Below, in pieces: positions 29,551 through 39,134 of a stretch of 64,000 nt of DNA. The notes under the pieces were generated by a model. The model made no database searches. It was not told the DNA's origin and saw only the letters and a program-made list of their open reading frames with translations. Positions within the stretch are counted from its first letter, which is position 1. Each line of letters opens with the position of its first letter. Position numbers and translations under genes: made by a program. This stretch comes from Clostridia bacterium (lineage in GTDB: Bacteria > Bacillota > Clostridia > Oscillospirales > CAG-272), in assembly GCA_017453365.1 (NCBI GenBank), contig JAFTKH010000003.1:1866-65865 (forward strand), written 5' to 3'.

Positions 29551-30222
29551 ATGAATTTCGATACACTTATATATATCGTTGAGGACGACGAGGGAATAGG
29601 TGAGGTGTACCTCGGTGCTCTCGAGGACAGCTACAGGGTAGATATATTTGCCACCGGCGGAGAGTTCTTCACCGCATTTGATAAACGCAGACCCGACCTT
29701 ATCATTCTCGATATTATGCTACCGGATATGGACGGATATCAGATACTGTCACGCATAAGAGAGTGCGACGAGCGAGTACCTGTAATCATAGTCAGTGCGA
29801 AATCTGATGAGATAAGCTTTGTTAAGGGGCTCAACAGAGGAGCGGACGATTATATGGCGAAGCCCTTTTCCGTCCTCGAGCTGCTCGCGAGAGTGAAGGC
29901 GGGACTCCGCCGCGCAAACCTATATGTTAAAGTGGCGGGAAATTTTACCGTTGATAACAATACATACCGCGCCGCATGGCACGGGCAGGACCTTGGACTC
30001 ACCCTTAAGGAATTTAAGCTTTTGCGGATGCTTATCGGGCGCTCGGGAGTGACTGTCTCGCGTGAGGAGCTTTTCCGCGAGGTGTGGGGAGAGGAATTTA
30101 TGGGTGAGAGCCGTACTCTCGATATGCATATGGCGACGCTTCGCGAGAAGATAAGTACGCTTGGAGCCCCCGAATGCATAGTTACCGTCAGGGGAATAGG
30201 CTATAGGTTTGAGTCGGTATGA
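29551..30222 (+). CDS. OmpR/PhoB-family response regulator
   Basis: Receiver domain (DLIILDIMLPDMDG, ..SAKSD.., KPF) plus a winged-helix output domain (LTLKEFKLL...VRGIGYRF). Confidence 0.9.
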   Translation: MNFDTLIYIVEDDEGIGEVYLGALEDSYRVDIFATGGEFFTAFDKRRPDLIILDIMLPDMDGYQILSRIRECDERVPVIIVSAKSDEISFVKGLNRGADDYMAKPFSVLELLARVKAGLRRANLYVKVAGNFTVDNNTYRAAWHGQDLGLTLKEFKLLRMLIGRSGVTVSREELFREVWGEEFMGESRTLDMHMATLREKISTLGAPECIVTVRGIGYRFESV

Positions 30223-31925
30223 GAAGAAAAATTTTTGTCAGATGCTTTCTTATAGCCTTTTTGTCCGTATCCATACTTTTCTCCGCGGGAATAGCTACGA
30301 CCTACGTGAGTAATAAAAGTCTTGTTAAGGAGCGCCTCATTACGGAGACAAAGCTCGCCGTAGCGTTGCTTAACAGCGAGGATGACTTTGAAGAGCTTGA
30401 TATATTTATGAACAACGATGAGTGCCGTGTTACGATAATTACCCCCGACGGCGAGGTTTTGTATGACAGTGACACGACCCTCGAGCTTGAGAACCATATA
30501 GACCGTGAGGAGGTCGCGGCAGCACTCGCGGGAGAGCCCGTTGCCGTTGAGCGCTATTCCGAAACCTTCGGCTGCAATATGAATTATTACGCTATGCTGA
30601 CGTCGCTTGATGACGGCAGAGAGGTAATAGTGAGGCTCGCACTTAAAAATACAGAGATAAACTACTACATTTTATCGACTGTCCCCTTCCTGCTCCTTGC
30701 GCTGCTCGTATCCGCTTTTATCGCGGGCGTTTTCGCCCGAAGGCTGTCGGACAGCGTCGGCGAGCGGATATCCGATATAGGACGGAGCCTTAAGAGCTTA
30801 AATGACGGAGATTACGTACCTCTTGCGACCAATAGCTCCGATAGTGAGTTTTTCTCCGTATATAACGAGATAAACGAGCTGAATGAGAAGACCATAGGGA
30901 ATATCCTAAAAAGCGAGAGGGAAAAATGGCGGCTTAATGCAGTTATCGATAACGTGTCGCAGGGGATTATAGCTCTTTCCGGCGAGGAGAGAATACTTCT
31001 TGTAAACGGGAGCGCACTTGACTTGTTCGGGGTTGAGAGGTCGGTAATATCACTTAAGCTTGACAGCCTTATATCAGACAGTGGGCTCCTTATGAAGATT
31101 GAGAGGGCACTGTCTGCCCGTAACTCAAAATTTGAATATACATCCTCGGGCAGGACGGTAACCGTCGAGACCGTTACCCCCGCCGATTCGATGCTCGACG
31201 AAGAGATAAGCAGCATTATCATTATTTCCGACGTAACCTTTGAGAGGGAGTTGGGGAGACAGAAGGAAGAATTCTTTGCAAATGCCTCTCACGAGCTGAA
31301 AACACCGCTTACCGCTATGCGCGGACTTTCCGAGCTGCTCCTTGCGAAAAGCGAGGACAGCACAGACCGTCCGAAGCTTGAAAGAATACATAAGGAGTGC
31401 ATAAGGCTCTCCGATCTCATATCGGATATGCTGAAGTTGAGTCTTCTTGAAGCGCCGAAGGAGAGCGAGTCGGTATTTTCCGTAGATATGCACAGAATTG
31501 CCGAGGAAGCTATAGCGGAGCTCGCCTATGCAATGAAGGAGAAGGGTATCGCGTGCGAGCTCGTCGGCGACGCCGCCGTCTTGGCAGAGGAGAAGAAGAT
31601 GTACGAGCTTATGTGTAATCTTCTCTCGAACGCGGTTAACTATAACGTCGAGGGCGGCAGCATTACCGTGACGCTCGGTACTCGGGAGGATGAAGCCTAT
31701 CTTTCGGTACGCGACACGGGAATAGGTATCTCCCCCGAGCACATCCCTCACCTCTTCGAGAGATTTTACAGAGTGGATAAATCACGCTCGAAGAAGACAG
31801 GCGGTACAGGTCTTGGACTCGCTATAGTGAAGCACATATCGGCGCTCTTCGGCGGAAGGATAACCGTTGAGAGCGAGCCGGGTGAAGGAACGGAGATATG
31901 CATCTTTTTCAAAAAAGAAGCTTAA
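30219..31925 (+). CDS. sensor histidine kinase (PhoR-like: 2 TM, HAMP, PAS, HisKA, HATPase)
   Basis: H-box SHELKTPLTAM, N-box LLSNAVNY, G-boxes RDTGIGI and GGTGLGLAIVK. It overlaps the response regulator stop by 4 nt. Confidence 0.9.
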   Translation: MRRKIFVRCFLIAFLSVSILFSAGIATTYVSNKSLVKERLITETKLAVALLNSEDDFEELDIFMNNDECRVTIITPDGEVLYDSDTTLELENHIDREEVAAALAGEPVAVERYSETFGCNMNYYAMLTSLDDGREVIVRLALKNTEINYYILSTVPFLLLALLVSAFIAGVFARRLSDSVGERISDIGRSLKSLNDGDYVPLATNSSDSEFFSVYNEINELNEKTIGNILKSEREKWRLNAVIDNVSQGIIALSGEERILLVNGSALDLFGVERSVISLKLDSLISDSGLLMKIERALSARNSKFEYTSSGRTVTVETVTPADSMLDEEISSIIIISDVTFERELGRQKEEFFANASHELKTPLTAMRGLSELLLAKSEDSTDRPKLERIHKECIRLSDLISDMLKLSLLEAPKESESVFSVDMHRIAEEAIAELAYAMKEKGIACELVGDAAVLAEEKKMYELMCNLLSNAVNYNVEGGSITVTLGTREDEAYLSVRDTGIGISPEHIPHLFERFYRVDKSRSKKTGGTGLGLAIVKHISALFGGRITVESEPGEGTEICIFFKKEA

Positions 31926-31991: not shown

Positions 31992-33134
31992 TTATTGTTC
32001 TGTAGCATAGGCACTGTATGCGCTTACGGCTTCTTCTATAGTCGCTCCCTTTGAGACAAGGTATCCGTTCGCATCGGGATAGTAGGCGTCTGCATCGTGT
32101 ACCCACGTTTCCGTATTGAAGGAGTCGCACGCAACTCCGCTGGAGAAGGTAGCGTAGTACGAGTTCGTATTTGCCTTGCCCTTATACATATCTCCGTACT
32201 GTGCCCATTTGCCGTCGCTGTCTTTAACGTAGACGATAGCATACACCGTGACGGTGACGGAGCTGTCACTGCCAAAAAATCCCGTTGTTCCCGTAATGGT
32301 ATCCGGTGTCATATACATAACCATTTCGTTTACGTCCGCAGCTCCGTTATAATCAAAAACGTCCTTTTCTTTTATCATAACGGTACATTCATTAGCAACA
32401 GTTCCGTTTAAGCTCACGTTTTTCAGCGTATCTCCGAATACGGATTTAATTAGTGTGGTATCGCTTGAGCTTGTATCTCCCGCGACGTTTCCGACGTAGT
32501 CTCCGCCGAACTTGTAGCCGCCTGCGTTTGAGCTCATTGCATCTTGTATATCAACGAGCACGTCCGGGTCGTTTAACGCTGTGAGGAAGGATTCCGATGC
32601 CTTGTTGACGACTGCCTCATCCTTATCCTCCTCACTCGCGAAGCCAAAATTGAACATCAGCGTAGCGGAAACCAGGCTTGCCCCCGTGTCCGTAGCCTTC
32701 AGCGTAACCGTTATGTCAGAGGTTACCGCTCCTGACGCGAGAGCCTCTTCTGCAGTAATTCCCGAAACGCCCTCGACGGCAAGTCCAGTATTCGTATCGG
32801 TACCCTCTACTGTTGGAGCAGTTACAGACTTGAAAACGAAATTCAGATCTGTATTGTTTCTCACGGTGACAGTGACGGTGACTGTATCTCCCTCCGAAAA
32901 ATCTGCCGTCAGAGAAAGAATACCCGCAGGCTCGGTCAGAGAGCTGTTACCGCCTCTGTAGCCGACGTCGCCCGAGGATATTTCGGCTGTAGCCACGTAG
33001 AGCCACGGCTCTACTCCCGTAAATACTCTTGAAGTCACATTAAGGGTATCGGAAAGGGTCGCGTACCCAACGCTAAGGAACGCGAGAACGAAAAAGAGCG
33101 CACAGAAAACAGTCATTTTAAAAGCTTTTTTCAT
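31992..33134 (-). CDS. secreted protein with SipW-type signal peptide (cargo 2, 380 aa)
   Basis: MKKAFKMTVFCALFFVLAFLSVGYATLSDTLNVT. The mature part is Thr/Val/Ser/Gly/Asp-rich with alternating beta-like stretches (TVTVTVTV). The ATG at 33134 has an AAGGAG RBS; the track ORF extends to 33191. Confidence 0.7.
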   Translation of the reverse strand: MKKAFKMTVFCALFFVLAFLSVGYATLSDTLNVTSRVFTGVEPWLYVATAEISSGDVGYRGGNSSLTEPAGILSLTADFSEGDTVTVTVTVRNNTDLNFVFKSVTAPTVEGTDTNTGLAVEGVSGITAEEALASGAVTSDITVTLKATDTGASLVSATLMFNFGFASEEDKDEAVVNKASESFLTALNDPDVLVDIQDAMSSNAGGYKFGGDYVGNVAGDTSSSDTTLIKSVFGDTLKNVSLNGTVANECTVMIKEKDVFDYNGAADVNEMVMYMTPDTITGTTGFFGSDSSVTVTVYAIVYVKDSDGKWAQYGDMYKGKANTNSYYATFSSGVACDSFNTETWVHDADAYYPDANGYLVSKGATIEEAVSAYSAYATEQ

Positions 33135-33246: not shown

Positions 33247-35154
33247 TCACTCATCCCCGTCGGGGAGTACTGCGTCGCTCCGTTTGTGTCTTTTGTCACG
33301 GAGGAGCTCCTCTACGTCAGCCTTTTCTGTCGGCGTGTTCGCATCGAGTAATACGCCCGTCGGTGCTATTACCTTTATGAGCTCGCGCTCGATAAGCATC
33401 TCGGTGCTTTCGTACGGCAGTCGGTAGTCAACATTTGGAATATCGCTCTGCTTTATACCGAGGGCATTCATACATTCGTCAATAAGCAGATACGCCTGCT
33501 TCATCGATCGTTCTCCCTTTATCTTGAAGAGCATCGGCACCGTGTCGAGCTTCGGCTTATCTCCGACGTAGGAAACGCGATACTGCTCGTTGCTGTACTT
33601 TTCGGGATCGAGCGCGAGGTAAAGAAGGAGATACGAGCCCTTTACGTTAAGCTTTGCACAGCTTATGCGTCCGCGCTTGAAGGATTCGAAATTCAGACTT
33701 GTTCTTGCCTTCACACCCGAGAAGGAGAGAAGATAGTTTTTGATAAGGGAGTATTTTTCCTTGATCGTGTCCTCCGACTGTATCAGTCGGGACATAAACG
33801 ATGTGCGGTATCTTACCTCGACTGCCGCATCCTCCGTTACAGCAGGTATAGCTGCCTCATTTCGGGGAATCTTCCCTGTATCTGCCTCTGCGGTTGCGGA
33901 CTCTTCCGGCAAAGACTCCTCTCGGATACTCTCATCCGGTGCGGCTTCGGGGCTATCTCCTTCGGTGCCCTCGGGCGTTGCTTCCTCGTAAGCATCATAT
34001 TCCGCCGAGACCGTGAGCTCAGCGCAGTCGGGCGTGTTATCTGTTACCTCTTTGCTATCCTTGCCGACGCCGTAAAGCTCATCGTAGTTGTCCACCTTTA
34101 TCTCAAAAAGGTAGAGAAGCTTCGTCTGTGTGGGAATAAGGAATAGAGTTCTCGTTTCATCAGCATTCTCACTCATAAGTATCGGGGATTGTAAAGTATC
34201 GCGTATCCCGAGCATCTCGGGGAAGGTATCTATCTCGAGAACCTGATAGCCATTGGTGTCAAATTCGCCCTTCAGCTTCTGTATGTAGCTCTTATATGCT
34301 CCGAGAATACGCCTTATCTTGATCGAATAATTAATATCGTGGTTTCTCGTCAAGAAGATGAAGAAGAGCAGCACAATAAAGAGTATGAGTGAAAGGGAAA
34401 GACCACCGACAGCCGAATAGCCGAGTGCCGAGCGGCTGGCTAACGATTCGTCGCATATGAATACCTTTGCTTCACTGCCGGGGGCGGTTTCGGTGAGCGA
34501 CACGCTTACAGTTCTTTTCGTAAGAGGAACGGTAAGGGAGGTTGTATAGCTCATATTGCTGTCGCATCCGAGCTCCTCGGCGCTGCCTGTAACGTCGGTC
34601 TTCATAGTAACGGTAAGGCGCGGCGTCACGGAGGAAAGACCGTAGGTCTTGATGAAGCTCTCTGCTATTCCGTTGTACCTTCTGTAATCGATCTCGGTGC
34701 TGTCTGTTATTATGAGCTCGCCGCCCGTCGCGTACCCCTCCGTGTTTTCACGTATGACGTACTCAGGGGCGAATATTATCGCTTTAGTATCATTATCTGT
34801 AATTTCCAGGGTCGCGTATATACTGTAGGAGTATCGGTACTCCATTTTTTCTTCGTCTGTTCTTAGTACGTAGCTGAAATCAGCCTTAATGGTGTCTATT
34901 ATCGAGGCGACATAGGACTGTCCCTCTCCGAGCTCCTCCGCGTCGTAGAAATCGTTTTGAAGAAGCCTTACCGTGTAATCTATACCGCCCTTTTCGTAAT
35001 AGGGTATCTCGTGTGTGCTCTCGGCTCTGAAATAAAGTGCGCCGAGTGCCACGGAGAGAAGGAAAAATACCGTAAAGAGAGCGGTCAGGGCAGTTATCCA
35101 TTTTTTTCTGTTACGCTTGTAATTAAGCCTTTTTCTTCTTTCGGCTTCAGACAT
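33247..35154 (-). CDS. two-TM membrane protein (DUF5305-like N-terminal part, tentative) with an acidic linker and an extra C-terminal cytoplasmic domain
   Basis: In track numbering the layout runs as follows: basic N-terminus, TM residues 27-50, ectodomain of about 200 aa, TM residues 253-276, cytoplasmic region, Glu/Asp/Pro-rich linker residues 371-452, C-terminal domain of about 150 aa. Start ATG at 35154 (GGAGG 5 nt upstream), overlapping the peptidase stop. Confidence 0.65.
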   Translation of the reverse strand: MSEAERRKRLNYKRNRKKWITALTALFTVFFLLSVALGALYFRAESTHEIPYYEKGGIDYTVRLLQNDFYDAEELGEGQSYVASIIDTIKADFSYVLRTDEEKMEYRYSYSIYATLEITDNDTKAIIFAPEYVIRENTEGYATGGELIITDSTEIDYRRYNGIAESFIKTYGLSSVTPRLTVTMKTDVTGSAEELGCDSNMSYTTSLTVPLTKRTVSVSLTETAPGSEAKVFICDESLASRSALGYSAVGGLSLSLILFIVLLFFIFLTRNHDINYSIKIRRILGAYKSYIQKLKGEFDTNGYQVLEIDTFPEMLGIRDTLQSPILMSENADETRTLFLIPTQTKLLYLFEIKVDNYDELYGVGKDSKEVTDNTPDCAELTVSAEYDAYEEATPEGTEGDSPEAAPDESIREESLPEESATAEADTGKIPRNEAAIPAVTEDAAVEVRYRTSFMSRLIQSEDTIKEKYSLIKNYLLSFSGVKARTSLNFESFKRGRISCAKLNVKGSYLLLYLALDPEKYSNEQYRVSYVGDKPKLDTVPMLFKIKGERSMKQAYLLIDECMNALGIKQSDIPNVDYRLPYESTEMLIERELIKVIAPTGVLLDANTPTEKADVEELLRDKRHKRSDAVLPDGDE

Positions 35155-36283
35155 CACTGCCTCCTTTCCTGTCATCAAACAGTCGTGATAACCATACCGT
35201 AGGCCAGCCTACGTAGGGAATTTTGAATTTTACGGTACCGATTATTTCTTCTTCGGTAACGTATCCTGGATCTGCATCCTCGTTTGCATCCCCCTTTGTG
35301 TAAAACCGGTAGCTGCCGTTCGTGTATTCGAGGTCGTATACTCTGTGAACTACCCTAGAGCCGCCCTTTTCGAAAACTAATATATCCCCGACGGCGACCT
35401 CCTCGCCCCCCGAGTCCGTATATACCGTTACATCTCCGATATGTAGCTCACCCTCCATACTTCCTGAGCCTATGACTATTGCTCCGACGAAGAAGCGGCA
35501 GGAGGTCAGCATTATAAGCCCGATAAGGCAGATGAGGAGGGCAGCGAGAGATATCGGTCCGAGCTTCGTCCCTCTTTTTATGGCGTAGCTTCTTTTTTTC
35601 TCATACAGCGAGCTTATGAAGAGGTATGCGAGAAGGGGAAGTGTTATTCGTGCTGCGGCAACCAGTGCGGGTGCGGCGGTAGGAAGATAGGGAATAAAGT
35701 AAATGTAAATGGTTGTTGTCAGCTTATAGGTCAGGGCGGGTAGAAAGCCGTGCCTACGTGTTAAATAATTGAATAAAAGGTTTTGAGAAATCGACGGCGC
35801 CAGAGTTGCTCCGACGAGCTCAGTGAAGGCGTAGACACTGTTGATGGAGTCAGCCTCGCCCGAAAGCGTTACGTAGGTGAGTATTGCCCCTGCAGAGAAA
35901 ATCAGTGTCGCGGGCTTAGAGGACGCTCCCAGCACCAGGCCTCGTGTGTATTCTACTGACAGTATCACGGCGGAAAGCGGTAAAGCCCGCGTCAGGAGCT
36001 CGAGCGGAGTGTAGCTCGCCGTTTTACCTATACCGAAATAGAGTCCCGAAAGATAATAGAGCATTATCGCCGCCGCTGTACCGACGGATATGATAAGGAG
36101 CACCTGATTTTTATAGATCGACGGTACGCTCCGTTTTTTGATTAGAAAGCTTGCGAAGAGGGCAAGGATGGGGAGCAGGAGAGCAGCATATACCCGACTC
36201 CCCTCAGGAAACGCGAAAAGTAAAATGGGAAGGGCGAGCGCGAGGATAGAGACCGTATATAGTTTTTTTCTGTCCGCCGACAT
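35147..36283 (-). CDS. SipW/ER-archaeal-type signal peptidase I fused to an N-terminal domain of about eight TM helices
   Basis: C-terminal 120 aa carry GSGSMEG (Ser box), VVHRV (His box) and YTKGDANEDAD. They are preceded by about 240 aa of repeated hydrophobic helices. The RBS is AAGGAGGG. Confidence 0.75.
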   Translation of the reverse strand: MSADRKKLYTVSILALALPILLFAFPEGSRVYAALLLPILALFASFLIKKRSVPSIYKNQVLLIISVGTAAAIMLYYLSGLYFGIGKTASYTPLELLTRALPLSAVILSVEYTRGLVLGASSKPATLIFSAGAILTYVTLSGEADSINSVYAFTELVGATLAPSISQNLLFNYLTRRHGFLPALTYKLTTTIYIYFIPYLPTAAPALVAAARITLPLLAYLFISSLYEKKRSYAIKRGTKLGPISLAALLICLIGLIMLTSCRFFVGAIVIGSGSMEGELHIGDVTVYTDSGGEEVAVGDILVFEKGGSRVVHRVYDLEYTNGSYRFYTKGDANEDADPGYVTEEEIIGTVKFKIPYVGWPTVWLSRLFDDRKGGSDV

Positions 36284-36320: not shown

Positions 36321-36866
36321 TTATGCGTTTGCGGTTATTGCGATGGTGAAGGTTTCCTCTGCCGCATCATTACCTGAGATATCGTTTGCCATAGTGATGG
36401 TGACGGTAAGAGTGGTCGTGCCCGTTTTAGGAGCGAGAGTCGTAGCGGCGAGCTCTGCAGTTGCTGTGAACGTGCTGTCAGTTCCCGCAGCAGTAACGGT
36501 AGGATTGCTGAGAGTTACCTCGAAATTACTTTCATTAACTACAGTGAACACGAGAATTATCTCGTCATTCTTCGTTGCGAGGAAGCCGTCAACATCGAGT
36601 ACTATTTCGTCGGTTCCCGTTCCGCTAACGGTGATAGCGTAGTCATCGTTCGAGGTGTCATCGCTCTTAACGTCGCTGACAGCGGCGCCGTTACGTGTAC
36701 CGGAGGTGATATTGTAGTCGCTTGCAAAGTATACATACGGGTCAAACGCGGGGGCGTTAGCTCCTGCTGTGACAGTGAGGTCGTCGGACAATGCTGCGTA
36801 TCCGATACCCAGCGTGAGTATTGCAACTACAAGGAATACGGCTACAACGGTTCTTCTCTTTTTCAT
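36321..36866 (-). CDS. small secreted protein with SipW-type signal peptide (cargo 1, 181 aa)
   Basis: MKKRRTVVAVFLVVAILTLGIGYAALSDDLTVT. The mature part is Thr/Ala/Val/Asp-rich with beta-like composition. AAGGAG RBS. Confidence 0.7.
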   Translation of the reverse strand: MKKRRTVVAVFLVVAILTLGIGYAALSDDLTVTAGANAPAFDPYVYFASDYNITSGTRNGAAVSDVKSDDTSNDDYAITVSGTGTDEIVLDVDGFLATKNDEIILVFTVVNESNFEVTLSNPTVTAAGTDSTFTATAELAATTLAPKTGTTTLTVTITMANDISGNDAAEETFTIAITANA

Positions 36867-36937: not shown

Positions 36938-36967
36938 ATAATAGCACAGTTTTGCACAAAATGTCAA
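36938..36967 (-). promoter_or_regulatory. promoter of the peptidase/cargo operon
   Basis: Minus strand reads TTGACA (36962..36967), 18 nt spacer, TATTAT (36938..36943). A TG lies two nt upstream of the -10, giving an extended -10. Confidence 0.5.
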
Positions 36968-37059: not shown

Positions 37060-37359
37060 ATGGACAGTATTTCGGATAGAATAAGATATCTGCGTGATAA
37101 GGCAGGCTATACACAGACCTACCTTGCGAAGCGGCTCGGTATATCGAGAAGTGCCGTGAATTCGTGGGAAATGTCGCTTTCCTCTCCATCGGTTTCGAAC
37201 ATTATAGAGATGACGTCTCTTTTTAACGTGAGCGCAGATTATCTTCTATCTACCTCGGATAGACTCACCGTCGATATCACCGAGCTTGACAGTGAGGAAC
37301 GTGAGGTGGTTATCAGACTCGTGAACTGTCTTAAGGCTAATCACGCAGAAAAAAGGTGA
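37060..37359 (+). CDS. XRE-family HTH regulator (SinR-like size and position)
   Basis: IRYLRDKAGYTQTYLAKRLGISRSAVNSWE is a Cro/C1-type HTH. 99 aa, divergent from the peptidase operon. Confidence 0.8.
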   Translation: MDSISDRIRYLRDKAGYTQTYLAKRLGISRSAVNSWEMSLSSPSVSNIIEMTSLFNVSADYLLSTSDRLTVDITELDSEEREVVIRLVNCLKANHAEKR

Positions 37360-37456: not shown

Positions 37457-38242
37457 ATGCATTTAAGACCGAGCAGAGTATTAAGACAAATGAGAGCGGG
37501 TAAGGTTGCCGTTTCGACTAAGCTTAATCTCGACGACCCGAGAGCCGCAGAGATAGCCGCTATGTTCGGCTTCGACTGCATTTGGATAGACCTCGAGCAC
37601 GTTCCCTCGTCGATGGCGAACGTGGAGAATATGGTCAGAGCCGCAAAGATATACGACGTCGATATTATGACGAGAGTGTCGAAGGGCTCGTACAGCGATA
37701 TCGTCCGCCCTCTTGAGGCAGACTCGACGGGCGTTATGGTACCCCATCTTATGAGCCTCGAGGAAGCGAAGAAAATCGCATATTTCACGAAATTCCACCC
37801 AATTGGCAGACGCCCCATCGACGGCGGGAACGCCGACGGCAGATACTGTCTTGTCGGAGTTGAGGACTACATAACCGAGGCTAACCGAGAGCGCTTCACC
37901 GTTGTGCAGATAGAGGATCCGGAGCCCGTAGCCGAGCTTGAGGAAATCTGTCAGCTTCCCGGTATCGATATGATATTCTTCGGCCCTGCCGACTTCAGCC
38001 AGGGTATAGGATGCCCCGTCACCCCCACAGAGGAGGTGGACAGAGTACGCCGCCTTGTAGCAGCAACCTCGAGAAAGCACGGTAAGTTCGCAGGTACTGT
38101 AGGCACTGCCGCGAACTTCGATGAGCTCGTTGATATGGGTTATACCTTTATTAACGTCGGTGCTGACGTTATTGCCCTCGGCGATTACTACCGCGACCTT
38201 TTCCCGAAGGTAGCGGGCAGGAATATCAAGGAAGTTGAATAA
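37457..38242 (+). CDS. HpcH/HpaI family aldolase (2-keto-3-deoxy-sugar-acid aldolase-like)
   Basis: FGFDCIWIDLEHVP, TRVSKG, VMVPHL.S.EEA and FFGPADFS motifs are typical of HpcH/HpaI. Confidence 0.8.
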   Translation: MHLRPSRVLRQMRAGKVAVSTKLNLDDPRAAEIAAMFGFDCIWIDLEHVPSSMANVENMVRAAKIYDVDIMTRVSKGSYSDIVRPLEADSTGVMVPHLMSLEEAKKIAYFTKFHPIGRRPIDGGNADGRYCLVGVEDYITEANRERFTVVQIEDPEPVAELEEICQLPGIDMIFFGPADFSQGIGCPVTPTEEVDRVRRLVAATSRKHGKFAGTVGTAANFDELVDMGYTFINVGADVIALGDYYRDLFPKVAGRNIKEVE

Positions 38243-38249
38243 CCTTAAT

Positions 38250-39134
38250 ATGAGTGAGTATGTTTATCATTATTGTAAGCCGAAGGTTTTTAACAGCATT
38301 ATAAAATCTAAAAAAATATGGCTCTCGGATTTAAGAAAGAGCAACGACTACGAGGAGATAGGCGGTATGATGGCGCGCATCTTTGCAAAGCTGCCAGAGA
38401 TGCTCCGCCGCGAGCGTGACCTGTTCTTTTTAGGTAACAGAGAGCGCTATTACGCCTACGTAGCGAGCTTTGCGAGAGAGTATTGGGAGCGCGAAATATC
38501 CCCCGTCGCTCTTTGGATGGCTATGTGCTTCTCGCGTGCGGAAGACGATCTCTCGCAGTGGCGAGGATATACCGAGCGTGCGACGGGCTTCGCGATAGGA
38601 GTCAAAGTTGCTGACGCCACACGCGAGATAACCCGTATAAATCATAGACTGATAAAGCTTAAGGAGATAGTCTACGATGAAGCCGAGCACGAGCGCTACT
38701 CCGAGGAAGCTATAGGCCGACTTATCGAGGCTATCCGCCTGTCGGAGGGAAAGACGGAAGAGAATATAGAGCTTAAAATACGTGCTATCGTGAAGCGCTG
38801 GTTTGCGCAGCTCGTTCTCGAGCTCGCATACTTTAAAAATCCAAGCTTTGAGGCCGAGGAAGAGGTCAGACTCTGCTACTCCCGTGTCATAAAAATTCAA
38901 CAGCTCGTCAACAGGAGCGAGGGCTCTACCTTAAATTATCTCGGTTACGACGTTACAGAAAACGACGTTGTAGCTCATCTTGAGGTAAACTATCCGCTCG
39001 AGCTTATATCGCGCATAATCATAGGGCCTATGAACCGCGCGACGCCCAACGACATAAAAATGCTCCTCGCTGTAAACGGCTTCAATACCGAGAATATAGA
39101 GGTAGTGAAATCACGCTCTACCTACAGAGGATAA
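38250..39134 (+). CDS. DUF2971 family protein
   Basis: The YVYHYCKPKVFNSIIKSKKIWLSDLRKSNDYEE opening matches the DUF2971 N-terminal signature as I remember it. The track ORF begins at a TTG at 38235, overlapping the aldolase stop. Confidence 0.55.
   Translation: MSEYVYHYCKPKVFNSIIKSKKIWLSDLRKSNDYEEIGGMMARIFAKLPEMLRRERDLFFLGNRERYYAYVASFAREYWEREISPVALWMAMCFSRAEDDLSQWRGYTERATGFAIGVKVADATREITRINHRLIKLKEIVYDEAEHERYSEEAIGRLIEAIRLSEGKTEENIELKIRAIVKRWFAQLVLELAYFKNPSFEAEEEVRLCYSRVIKIQQLVNRSEGSTLNYLGYDVTENDVVAHLEVNYPLELISRIIIGPMNRATPNDIKMLLAVNGFNTENIEVVKSRSTYRG

Follow-up and report, generated by a model that had tools for sequence, protein, structure and literature searches.

A signal peptidase I preceded by eight additional membrane helices in a probable TasA/AbpX-type fibre operon of a Clostridia bacterium

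Why should a signal peptidase I (SPase I) carry some 240 residues of membrane helices in front of its catalytic domain? The question is raised by a 378-residue protein encoded on the minus strand of a 64,000-nucleotide (nt) stretch of DNA from a Clostridia bacterium (GTDB lineage Bacteria; Bacillota; Clostridia; Oscillospirales; CAG-272), namely positions 1,866 to 65,865 of contig JAFTKH010000003.1 in assembly GCA_017453365.1, which was analysed as a whole and is referred to here as the window. An earlier note, made from the letters of the window, had described the gene as a SipW-type signal peptidase fused behind about eight extra transmembrane helices, which it suggested could serve substrate docking, polymer export, or membrane scaffolding. 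Having followed it up, we consider it rather probable that the protein serves, as a dedicated signal peptidase, an operon of four genes for a TasA/AbpX-type fibre, and that its eight-helix module is a non-catalytic part serving docking or coupling. The role of a dedicated peptidase is argued from family membership, the catalytic residues, synteny, the overlap with the downstream gene and precedent in a related system, while that of the helices as a docking or scaffold module is one that we infer from conservation and topology only.

The gene is a single open reading frame (ORF) of 378 codons without internal stops, which opens with an ATG at 36283 preceded, 7 nt upstream, by the strong Shine-Dalgarno sequence AAGGAGG. 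Its product is identical to the database protein MBQ7362962.1, labelled “signal peptidase I [Clostridia bacterium].” Methionine occurs only at residues 1, 74, 258, and 276, so the gap between residues 74 and 258 that had been pointed out is real, and the boxes GSGS275MEG, VVH313RV, and YTKGDANEDAD are read in the sequence exactly where the earlier note had placed them. Together they supply a serine nucleophile, a histidine rather than a lysine as general base, and a conserved aspartate (SMEG, VVHRV, and GDANEDAD). An alignment of 119 homologues shows no variation at S275, M276, D332, and D338, and at least 90% of its sequences have H313.

The model TIGR02228 (sigpep_I_arch) matches residues 248-365 with 85.5 bits against a cut-off of 51.85, whereas with NF046067, the SipW equivalog model, the score is just 48.7 bits where the cut-off is 190; the Pfam S26 score (21.3) falls slightly under its cut-off of 22.9. 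Since the first score lies above and the second far below the respective cut-off, the enzyme is, by its sequence, a peptidase of the SipW/Sec11 type, that is, an archaeal/endoplasmic reticulum (ER)-type member of S26 (MEROPS S26B), but not an orthologue of SipW; the label “SipW-type” thus holds for the type of enzyme and fails for the equivalog. SipW of Bacillus subtilis, to which a single N-terminal anchor had been ascribed, possesses a C-terminal membrane segment as well. When the whole structural model was compared with the PDB by Foldseek, the best matches were human SEC11A (7p2p_A, E 2.1e-5) and SEC11C (7p2q_A, E 3.8e-5), followed in third place by SipA of Streptococcus pyogenes (4N31, E 5e-4).

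That model, computed with AlphaFold2 from the alignment of 119 homologues, has a mean predicted local distance difference test score (pLDDT) of 90.7 and a predicted template modelling score (pTM) of 0.83. It contains eight N-terminal helices (H1, residues 3-22; H2, 26-47; H3, 58-83; H4, 93-119; H5, 123-141; H6, 150-178; H7, 181-195; H8, 205-227), then the anchor H9 (241-261) and a domain rich in beta structure, with a short helix (360-377) behind it; modelled by itself, the N-terminal domain (N-domain) reaches a pLDDT of 89.7 and a pTM of 0.86. Taken together, the TIGR02228 score and the model bear out the description of an ER/archaeal-type S26 peptidase behind about eight extra membrane helices. 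Family-averaged hydropathy and the positive-inside rule predict the N-terminus inside and the catalytic domain outside, with loops 48-57, 120-122, 179-180, and 228-240 assigned to the cytoplasm by the distribution of lysine and arginine, and the topology of the AlphaFold2 model agrees with this rule. A Lys/Arg-rich loop precedes helix 241-261, which in the predicted topology leaves the catalytic domain on the outside, and the C-terminal helix (residues 360-378) is probably too poor in hydrophobic residues to cross the membrane completely.

Conservation within the N-domain is concentrated in a limited set of residues. P102, E111, and P216 are invariant both in the 119-sequence alignment and in a 31-sequence alignment of the N-domain that covers the two deep branches of the family; G179 and P198 are invariant in the latter, R114, N168, Y173, Y77, G80, and Y195 are nearly invariant, and the main branch conserves K50, R51, S55, and R177. 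Among these residues, E111, R114, N168, Y173, R177, and K50/R51/S55 are predicted to lie at the inner leaflet or the cytoplasmic surface, while on the outer surface of the model two short strands (85-87 and 199-201) are formed from the conserved segments SGLxFGF and IPxxP.

No model for the N-domain was found in Pfam, NCBIfam, or PHROGs: the 31 members gave 0 matches to Pfam, PF02517 included, at E up to 1, the N-domain profile gave 0 matches to PDB sequences at E up to 10, and the best Foldseek match of the N-domain model in the PDB was not significant (E 0.42; template modelling score (TM-score) 0.35; root-mean-square deviation (rmsd) ~14 Å). Similarity to SPC12, SPC25, or SPC22/23 was not detectable by Foldseek or by the profile search of the PDB, hhalign of halves and quarters of the domain found no internal duplication (probabilities ≤0.1%), and residues 1-238 contain no conserved histidine or cysteine in the alignments of 119 and 31 sequences. 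These results agree with the earlier note, which had seen no protease, sortase, or CPBP signature in the extra domain, and they place the domain outside any well-known described family. CPBP/Abi proteases (PF02517) were considered and rejected, given the missing family match, an ExxR in place of EExxxR, and the absence of FxxxH and HxxxN; exosortases and archaeosortases, which are eight-helix cysteine proteases, were rejected for want of a conserved cysteine or histidine and of a family match. With no conserved histidine or cysteine, both kinds of chemistry are excluded at the motif level.

The module might nevertheless be an enzyme or a transporter itself, either a glutamate intramembrane protease of a degenerate CPBP/APH-1-like kind, which would remove the signal peptide once cut, or an ion- or lipid-coupled exporter, a proposal that we regard as improbable. 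It is favoured by three residues: Glu111, which is invariant and sits in a membrane helix, Arg114, one turn from it, and Asn168, nearly invariant and in helix 6. Its best fold matches are 7tm3_6, a 224-residue multipass translocon subunit that we take to be TMEM147 (TM-score 0.35), and 5a63_C from gamma-secretase (TM-score 0.32), which is presumably APH-1, considered a distant relative of the CPBP proteases; neither is significant, and at the Foldseek E values obtained we do not treat them as meaningful. The poor E and rmsd of the fold search, the empty Pfam and PDB searches, the lack of a conserved histidine and of the CPBP motifs, and the failure to find the internal repeat typical of transporters all speak against it.

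The fusion of this module to the peptidase is a stable character of the family. A first homologue search listed 120 clusters at 30-69% identity to the peptidase, most of which cover at least 85% of the query and all of which, bar one 274-amino acid (aa) fragment, are 360-386 aa long; some 360 full-length relatives (366-391 aa) retain the fusion down to ~30% identity. With a profile of the N-domain (238 residues) and clusters drawn at 50% identity, 1513 clusters matched at E up to 0.001 and 969 of these at E up to 1e-10; the best 150 of the 1513 are mostly 368-391 aa long, with about 40 shorter. A second, low-GC branch of 374-376 aa, whose sole named entry is labelled “Bacilli bacterium,” gave 425 matches at E up to 0.001 with unchanged architecture. 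Meanwhile, a scan of species-representative genomes with a seven-sequence subset of the N-domain alignment yielded 28 loci, every one of which (28/28) is a single intact ORF of 370-387 aa. All 28 belong to metagenome-assembled genomes (MAGs) from gut or rumen labelled Clostridia, Eubacteriales, Oscillospiraceae, Faecousia, Vescimonas, or Bacilli, and the named records seen among the N-domain matches are MAGs from the gut of ruminants or other animals with the labels Clostridia, Oscillospiraceae, or Bacilli. Because the full-length form is conserved in the listed clusters and in all 28 genomes, the fusion is genuine, far beyond chance, and not the product of a frameshift. The hidden stop or frameshift that the earlier note had considered as its own possible undoing is found neither here nor in the hundreds of intact relatives, which are fused in the same way.

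Several database entries of 240-254 aa do end at the domain border, which would be expected if the long ORF were an assembly or sequencing artefact joining two genes. We give this explanation practically no weight, as the homologues already refute it, the fused form recurring in hundreds of independent assemblies, and as four of the five short entries that we looked up are themselves artefacts or damaged copies: one contains a scaffold gap of Ns (L005), one carries an internal deletion (L006), and two are frameshifted in an A10 run (L035, 2845-2870) or an A6 run (L037, 1960-1992) of the lysine-rich linker, probably through assembly errors. In the AT-rich relatives, such A10 and A6 runs encode the linker between helix 8 and helix 9, and the frame breaks exactly there. 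In the fifth entry, a 2.2-kb Logan contig (L036), the N-domain apparently forms a true stand-alone gene of 251 aa (913-1740), placed directly after a subunit gene and followed by an inverted repeat with a T-run, resembling a terminator hairpin, with no peptidase domain behind it. The next gene on that contig is convergent and much higher in G+C, for which reason the contig may be chimeric. The search for relatives with the two halves as separate genes, proposed earlier as a Rosetta-stone test, thus returned four damaged or artefactual cases and one that looks stand-alone, and since this sole case is a 2.2-kb contig, a natural separation of the halves cannot be claimed.

What the peptidase may act on is indicated by its neighbours (Table 1). 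It is the second of four co-directional genes, which encode in order a 181-aa protein, the peptidase, a DUF5305 protein, and a 380-aa protein, and no strong terminator was found between them. The product of the gene downstream of the peptidase matches PF17231 (DUF5305) with 37.8 bits against a cut-off of 29; it crosses the membrane twice, carries a domain on the outside, and ends in a long C-terminal part in the cytoplasm. Its ATG overlaps the TGA of the peptidase by 8 nt (35147-35154) within GTGATGTCTGA, and because its Shine-Dalgarno sequence, AAAGGAGG, sits inside the peptidase coding sequence, the arrangement suggests translational coupling of the two genes. At two other loci (L014 and L034), the peptidase and DUF5305 ORFs, taken from their earliest start codons, likewise overlap by 8 nt. 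Residues ~290-635 of the DUF5305 protein make up a large cytoplasmic part, with an acidic low-complexity linker, PEGTEGDSPEAAPDESIREESLPEESATAEADTG, before the C-terminal domain; no family was found for these residues, and complete DUF5305 proteins at other loci range from 369 to 808 aa.

Table 1. Coordinates in the window of the operon, its genes, and the parts of the peptidase.
Feature	Position	Strand	Basis or remark
Sigma-70-like promoter (TTGACA, 18 nt, TG-TATTAT)	36938..36967	(-)	11/12 consensus matches only; ~70 nt 5' of the first gene
Small secreted AbpX/TasA-like subunit of 181 aa; putatively the substrate and the main subunit of the fibre	36321..36866	(-)	Motif, profiles
Polytopic signal peptidase I, 378 aa	35147..36283	(-)	NCBI MBQ7362962.1
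N-terminal eight-helix membrane domain, residues 1-238	35570..36283	(-)	AlphaFold2, conservation
Ninth membrane helix, residues 241-261; usual signal-anchor before the catalytic domain	35501..35563	(-)	AlphaFold2, hydropathy
Catalytic domain, archaeal/ER-type SPase I, residues 262-359	35207..35500	(-)	S275, H313, D332, D338; predicted extracytoplasmic
Short C-terminal helix, residues 360-378 (WPTVWLSRLF...)	35150..35206	(-)	AlphaFold2, family consensus
DUF5305 protein, 635 aa from ATG 35154; putative peptidase accessory subunit	33247..35154	(-)	PF17231
Large secreted paralogue, 380 aa from ATG 33134; putative minor, tip, or adhesin subunit	31992..33134	(-)	Motif, profile

The same arrangement is widespread in the family. 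Among 33 locus records with both flanks, two were duplicates, and the 31 further distinct loci that remained, scanned with hidden Markov models built from the operon proteins, show the order small subunit, peptidase, DUF5305: the small subunit gene lies directly upstream and the DUF5305 gene directly downstream, the latter in every locus that extends so far. A larger paralogue of 344-621 aa is present in most of the 31 loci, either after the DUF5305 gene or before the small subunit gene, and no sortase, SLH, or LPXTG anchor gene was found in the cassette. That the protein is instead a general housekeeping signal peptidase with a larger membrane anchor, its proximity to the fibre genes having no functional meaning, would fit the plain annotation “signal peptidase I”; we hold this to be very unlikely, given the same neighbours at 31 other loci from two deep branches at ~30% identity, the overlap with the DUF5305 gene, and a Ser/His catalytic apparatus where bacterial housekeeping signal peptidases are Ser/Lys enzymes of the P-type.

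Other genes flank the operon. An OmpR-type response regulator and a Cache/PAS histidine kinase (29551-31925, plus strand) converge on its 3' end, and a 99-aa XRE-family helix-turn-helix protein (37060-37359, plus strand; PF01381, E 1.2e-15) is encoded divergently, ~90 nt from the promoter-like site, a gene that is not kept beside the cassette in loci L001 and L003. A DUF2971 protein (38235-39134, plus strand; PF11185, E 9.4e-11), directly after an HpcH/HpaI aldolase gene, is unrelated to the operon.

Beyond what the earlier note contained, this operon context identifies likely substrates. The small subunits of the 31 loci and 19 large paralogues share an N-terminus of the form MKNRK, h-region, G[VI]GYA/ALTDTLTIxGxA (the slash marking the predicted cleavage site), the G of the motif being kept in 31/31 small subunits, its Y in 30/31, and its A in 31/31, while each of the 19 large subunits that fit the search pattern has all three; five further large subunits carry GYA outside the pattern. 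In the window, the 181-aa protein is predicted to be cleaved after G22-Y23-A24, exposing ALSDDLTVTAG as a donor strand, and the 380-aa paralogue has the motif SVGYA/TLSDTLNVT and is homologous to the small subunit in its N-terminal domain (E 1.9e-7 with the small-subunit profile). If cut after GYA, the mature 181-aa protein would have an isoelectric point (pI) of 4.05 and an Asp+Glu content of 14.7%; the pI of the 380-aa paralogue is likewise 4.05, and aspartate occupies mature position 4 in 21/31 small subunits. A twin arginine is absent from the subunit signal peptides, whose amino-terminal region (n-region), MKNRK, is nearly as conserved as the cleavage motif, which is unusual for Sec signal peptides. 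Conservation of MKNRK could reflect recognition from the cytoplasmic side. A leader peptidase for peptides made by the ribosome and modified after translation (RiPPs), by analogy with SipW homologues in lasso-peptide-like clusters, was also considered, and this reading was rejected because genes for a RiPP recognition element (RRE) or a cyclase are absent and the substrates are proteins of 180-400 aa.

A candidate counterpart of these subunits is AbpX, an archaeal fibre protein of Pyrodictium abyssi, the precursor of which reads ...LALTAIGLTYA/QWSETLSLSATISTG, the mature protein beginning at Q. The subunit motif aligns with ...IGLTYA/QWSETLSLSA of AbpX, sharing G-x-x-Y-A followed by a hydrophobic residue, S/T, an acidic residue, x, and L; hhalign gave a probability of 71% for the two N-termini and of 65% over 106 columns, including G-D...F-T-[IL]-x-N, for a 41-sequence subunit profile against AbpX. 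Searched against 177,635 distinct PDB sequences, the same profile had AbpX as its top two matches (9sj2_C, E 0.016; 9rhp_A, E 0.022), whereas the single sequence and a 16-sequence profile retrieved nothing relevant; BLASTP of the 181-aa protein against AbpX returned no alignment, and the subunits do not match the TasA/camelysin family of Pfam. AbpX-like proteins are reported to have a pI of ~4.0, an Asp+Glu content of ~15%, and an acidic donor-strand position 4 (Sleutel et al., January 2026, bioRxiv 10.64898/2026.01.04.697558). Because several individually weak lines (motif, hhalign, PDB profile, pI, and acidity) combine, the subunits are likely, as judged from their sequences, AbpX-like members of the TasA superfamily.

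The same preprint notes, in one sentence, that at AbpX loci in bacteria and archaea the SPase I has ten membrane helices instead of two. It reports further that minor subunits, tip subunits, and a DUF5305 protein are encoded there; its authors take the last for an accessory subunit of SPase I, to which it is in some cases fused, and are reminded by it of the eukaryotic complex. In bacteria, the loci often lie near histidine kinases (bioRxiv 10.64898/2026.01.04.697558). The enzyme of the window resembles these peptidases in its TIGR02228 type and its many extra membrane helices, and its surroundings resemble the loci in a putative AbpX-like subunit gene (a marginal match), a DUF5305 gene, a larger paralogue, and a nearby histidine-kinase gene. 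Given the ten-helix enzymes and DUF5305 proteins reported there, the peptidase is therefore, likened by description, a probable further member of this recently noted kind. The existence of ten-helix SPase I enzymes at AbpX loci is thus already known, noted in 2026 and not studied, and we found no literature that analyses the extra helices beyond that one sentence.

Experimental precedent comes from the tat-fimbriae of Haloarcula hispanica, where deletion of tafD, encoding an SPase I, blocks processing of TafA and abolishes fibres, and the DUF5305 protein TafG, whose gene shares the taf cluster with tafD, has been proposed as accessory to the peptidase (PMC11821415). Both systems cluster an SPase I and a DUF5305 gene with genes for donor-strand fibre subunits, putative ones in the present case. 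TafD differs in having four membrane helices, a C-terminal Ig-like domain, and no N-terminal eight-helix bundle, and its substrates use the twin-arginine translocation (Tat) pathway (PMC11821415), whereas the signal peptides here lack the twin arginine. The tapA-sipW-tasA operon of B. subtilis offers a second comparison, with an ER/archaeal-type Ser/His peptidase inside an operon of biofilm fibre proteins, which are its substrates; the XRE-type regulator gene near the present operon also recalls the layout of SinR next to tapA-sipW-tasA. SipW, however, has ~190 aa and no eight-helix domain, in keeping with the low NF046067 score given above, and the B. subtilis operon has no DUF5305 gene, while the one described here has no TapA gene.

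With these comparisons in place, the following mechanism appears most likely to us: the operon would build a cell-surface fibre of the TasA/AbpX type by donor-strand complementation, although fibre formation and the cleavage position, the latter by analogy, are here deduced. The subunits would be exported with the highly conserved signal peptide (MKNRK, h-region, G-[VI]-G-Y-A), and the Ser275/His313/Asp domain, held at the outer face of the membrane by helix 9, would cut after G-Y-A, freeing an N-terminus A-L-[TS]-D-x-L-x-[IV]-x-G that would serve as the donor strand. The eight helices may form a lateral docking site for the signal peptide, in which the polar cluster of the inner leaflet (E111, R114, N168, Y173, R177, K50, and R51) would face the basic n-region and the small outer beta-element (residues 85-87 and 199-201) would adjoin the active site. 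The module may also couple the peptidase to the two-span DUF5305 protein, in which case the pair would correspond, in a prokaryote, to the multi-subunit signal peptidase complex of eukaryotes.

Several observations weigh against this interpretation. The similarity between the subunits and AbpX is marginal (E 0.016; hhalign 65-71%), and donor-strand position 2 is usually leucine or valine here and not the aromatic residue stressed by the preprint, a difference from AbpX loci to which the lack of an anchor gene of the sortase, SLH, or LPXTG kind in the cassette may be added. As modelled, the peptidase has nine full helices and the short C-terminal helix 360-377 where ten have been published, and the likeness to the AbpX-locus enzymes (A0A1M6GRN4, A0A2R7Y7S8, and WP_338249487.1) is drawn by their published description only. 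Besides, E111 is an invariant glutamate buried in a helix, which is unusual for a pure scaffold and leaves a small probability for a catalytic or transport role of the module. Direct-coupling analysis between the module and the catalytic part (360 sequences; effective number of sequences, Meff, 246) was noisy, with mixed inter-domain pairs of which some are physically impossible, such as the depth-inconsistent N172-I271, and its result was left unused for this reason.

A different division of labour would make the eight-helix module an assembly platform, which holds the cut subunit in the plane of the membrane and hands its donor strand to the fibre, so that cleavage and polymerisation are coupled in a manner similar to an usher or to SipA/LepA. 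We consider this unlikely, if less so than a catalytic or transporting module. At all loci the module strictly accompanies fibre subunit genes, the cassette has no chaperone or usher gene, and contig L036 has a stand-alone N-domain gene beside a subunit gene, ahead of a terminator-like hairpin, but that evidence comes from one 2.2-kb contig. SipA, which is needed for pilus polymerisation in S. pyogenes, ranks third among the fold matches of the catalytic part; the match, however, concerns the peptidase fold and not the extra domain. AbpX polymerises in vitro without a helper when given calcium, and most of the polar positions that are invariant in the module are found on the cytoplasmic side, not on the side where polymerisation would occur. 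SipA/LepA of the S. pyogenes pilus loci (4N31) and the present enzyme have in common a signal-peptidase fold and a place in a fibre locus, SipA being needed for fibre assembly. SipA no longer carries the catalytic residues and is held by one anchor, whereas the peptidase here retains its serine, histidine, and aspartate.

Returning to the reading as a dedicated peptidase with a docking or coupling module, the comparison with SEC11A and SEC11C (PDB 7P2P and 7P2Q) allows it to be carried one step further. These are the best structural match of the catalytic part, with 28% identity and the same Ser/His/Asp chemistry, and in the eukaryotic complex non-catalytic membrane subunits surround SEC11, a part that the fused helices and the DUF5305 protein could play here, with the difference that the extra membrane helices are in the same chain. 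In its strongest form, which we offer tentatively and hold to be considerably less probable than the dedicated-peptidase reading itself, the eight-helix module would be a new membrane fold without a relative in the PDB and would constitute, with DUF5305, a self-contained prokaryotic signal peptidase complex that recognises MKNRK...GYA through Glu, Arg, and Asn residues of the inner leaflet and couples cleavage to the release or hand-over of the donor strand.

The N-domain family is large, with 1513 clusters at 50% identity, and is tied to fibre genes at all loci; because the current annotation hides it under “signal peptidase I,” this 240-residue domain deserves a family entry of its own. With four genes and one promoter, the system is compact enough for testing whether added membrane helices specialise a signal peptidase for a class of substrates, and it is equally suited to testing DUF5305 as the partner of the peptidase. 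TasA-like fibres bind biofilms together in bacteria and archaea, and should the tentative reading as a signal peptidase complex prove true, the fused enzyme and its partner would supply the missing membrane step in the biogenesis of TasA/AbpX-type fibres in monoderm bacteria and archaea.

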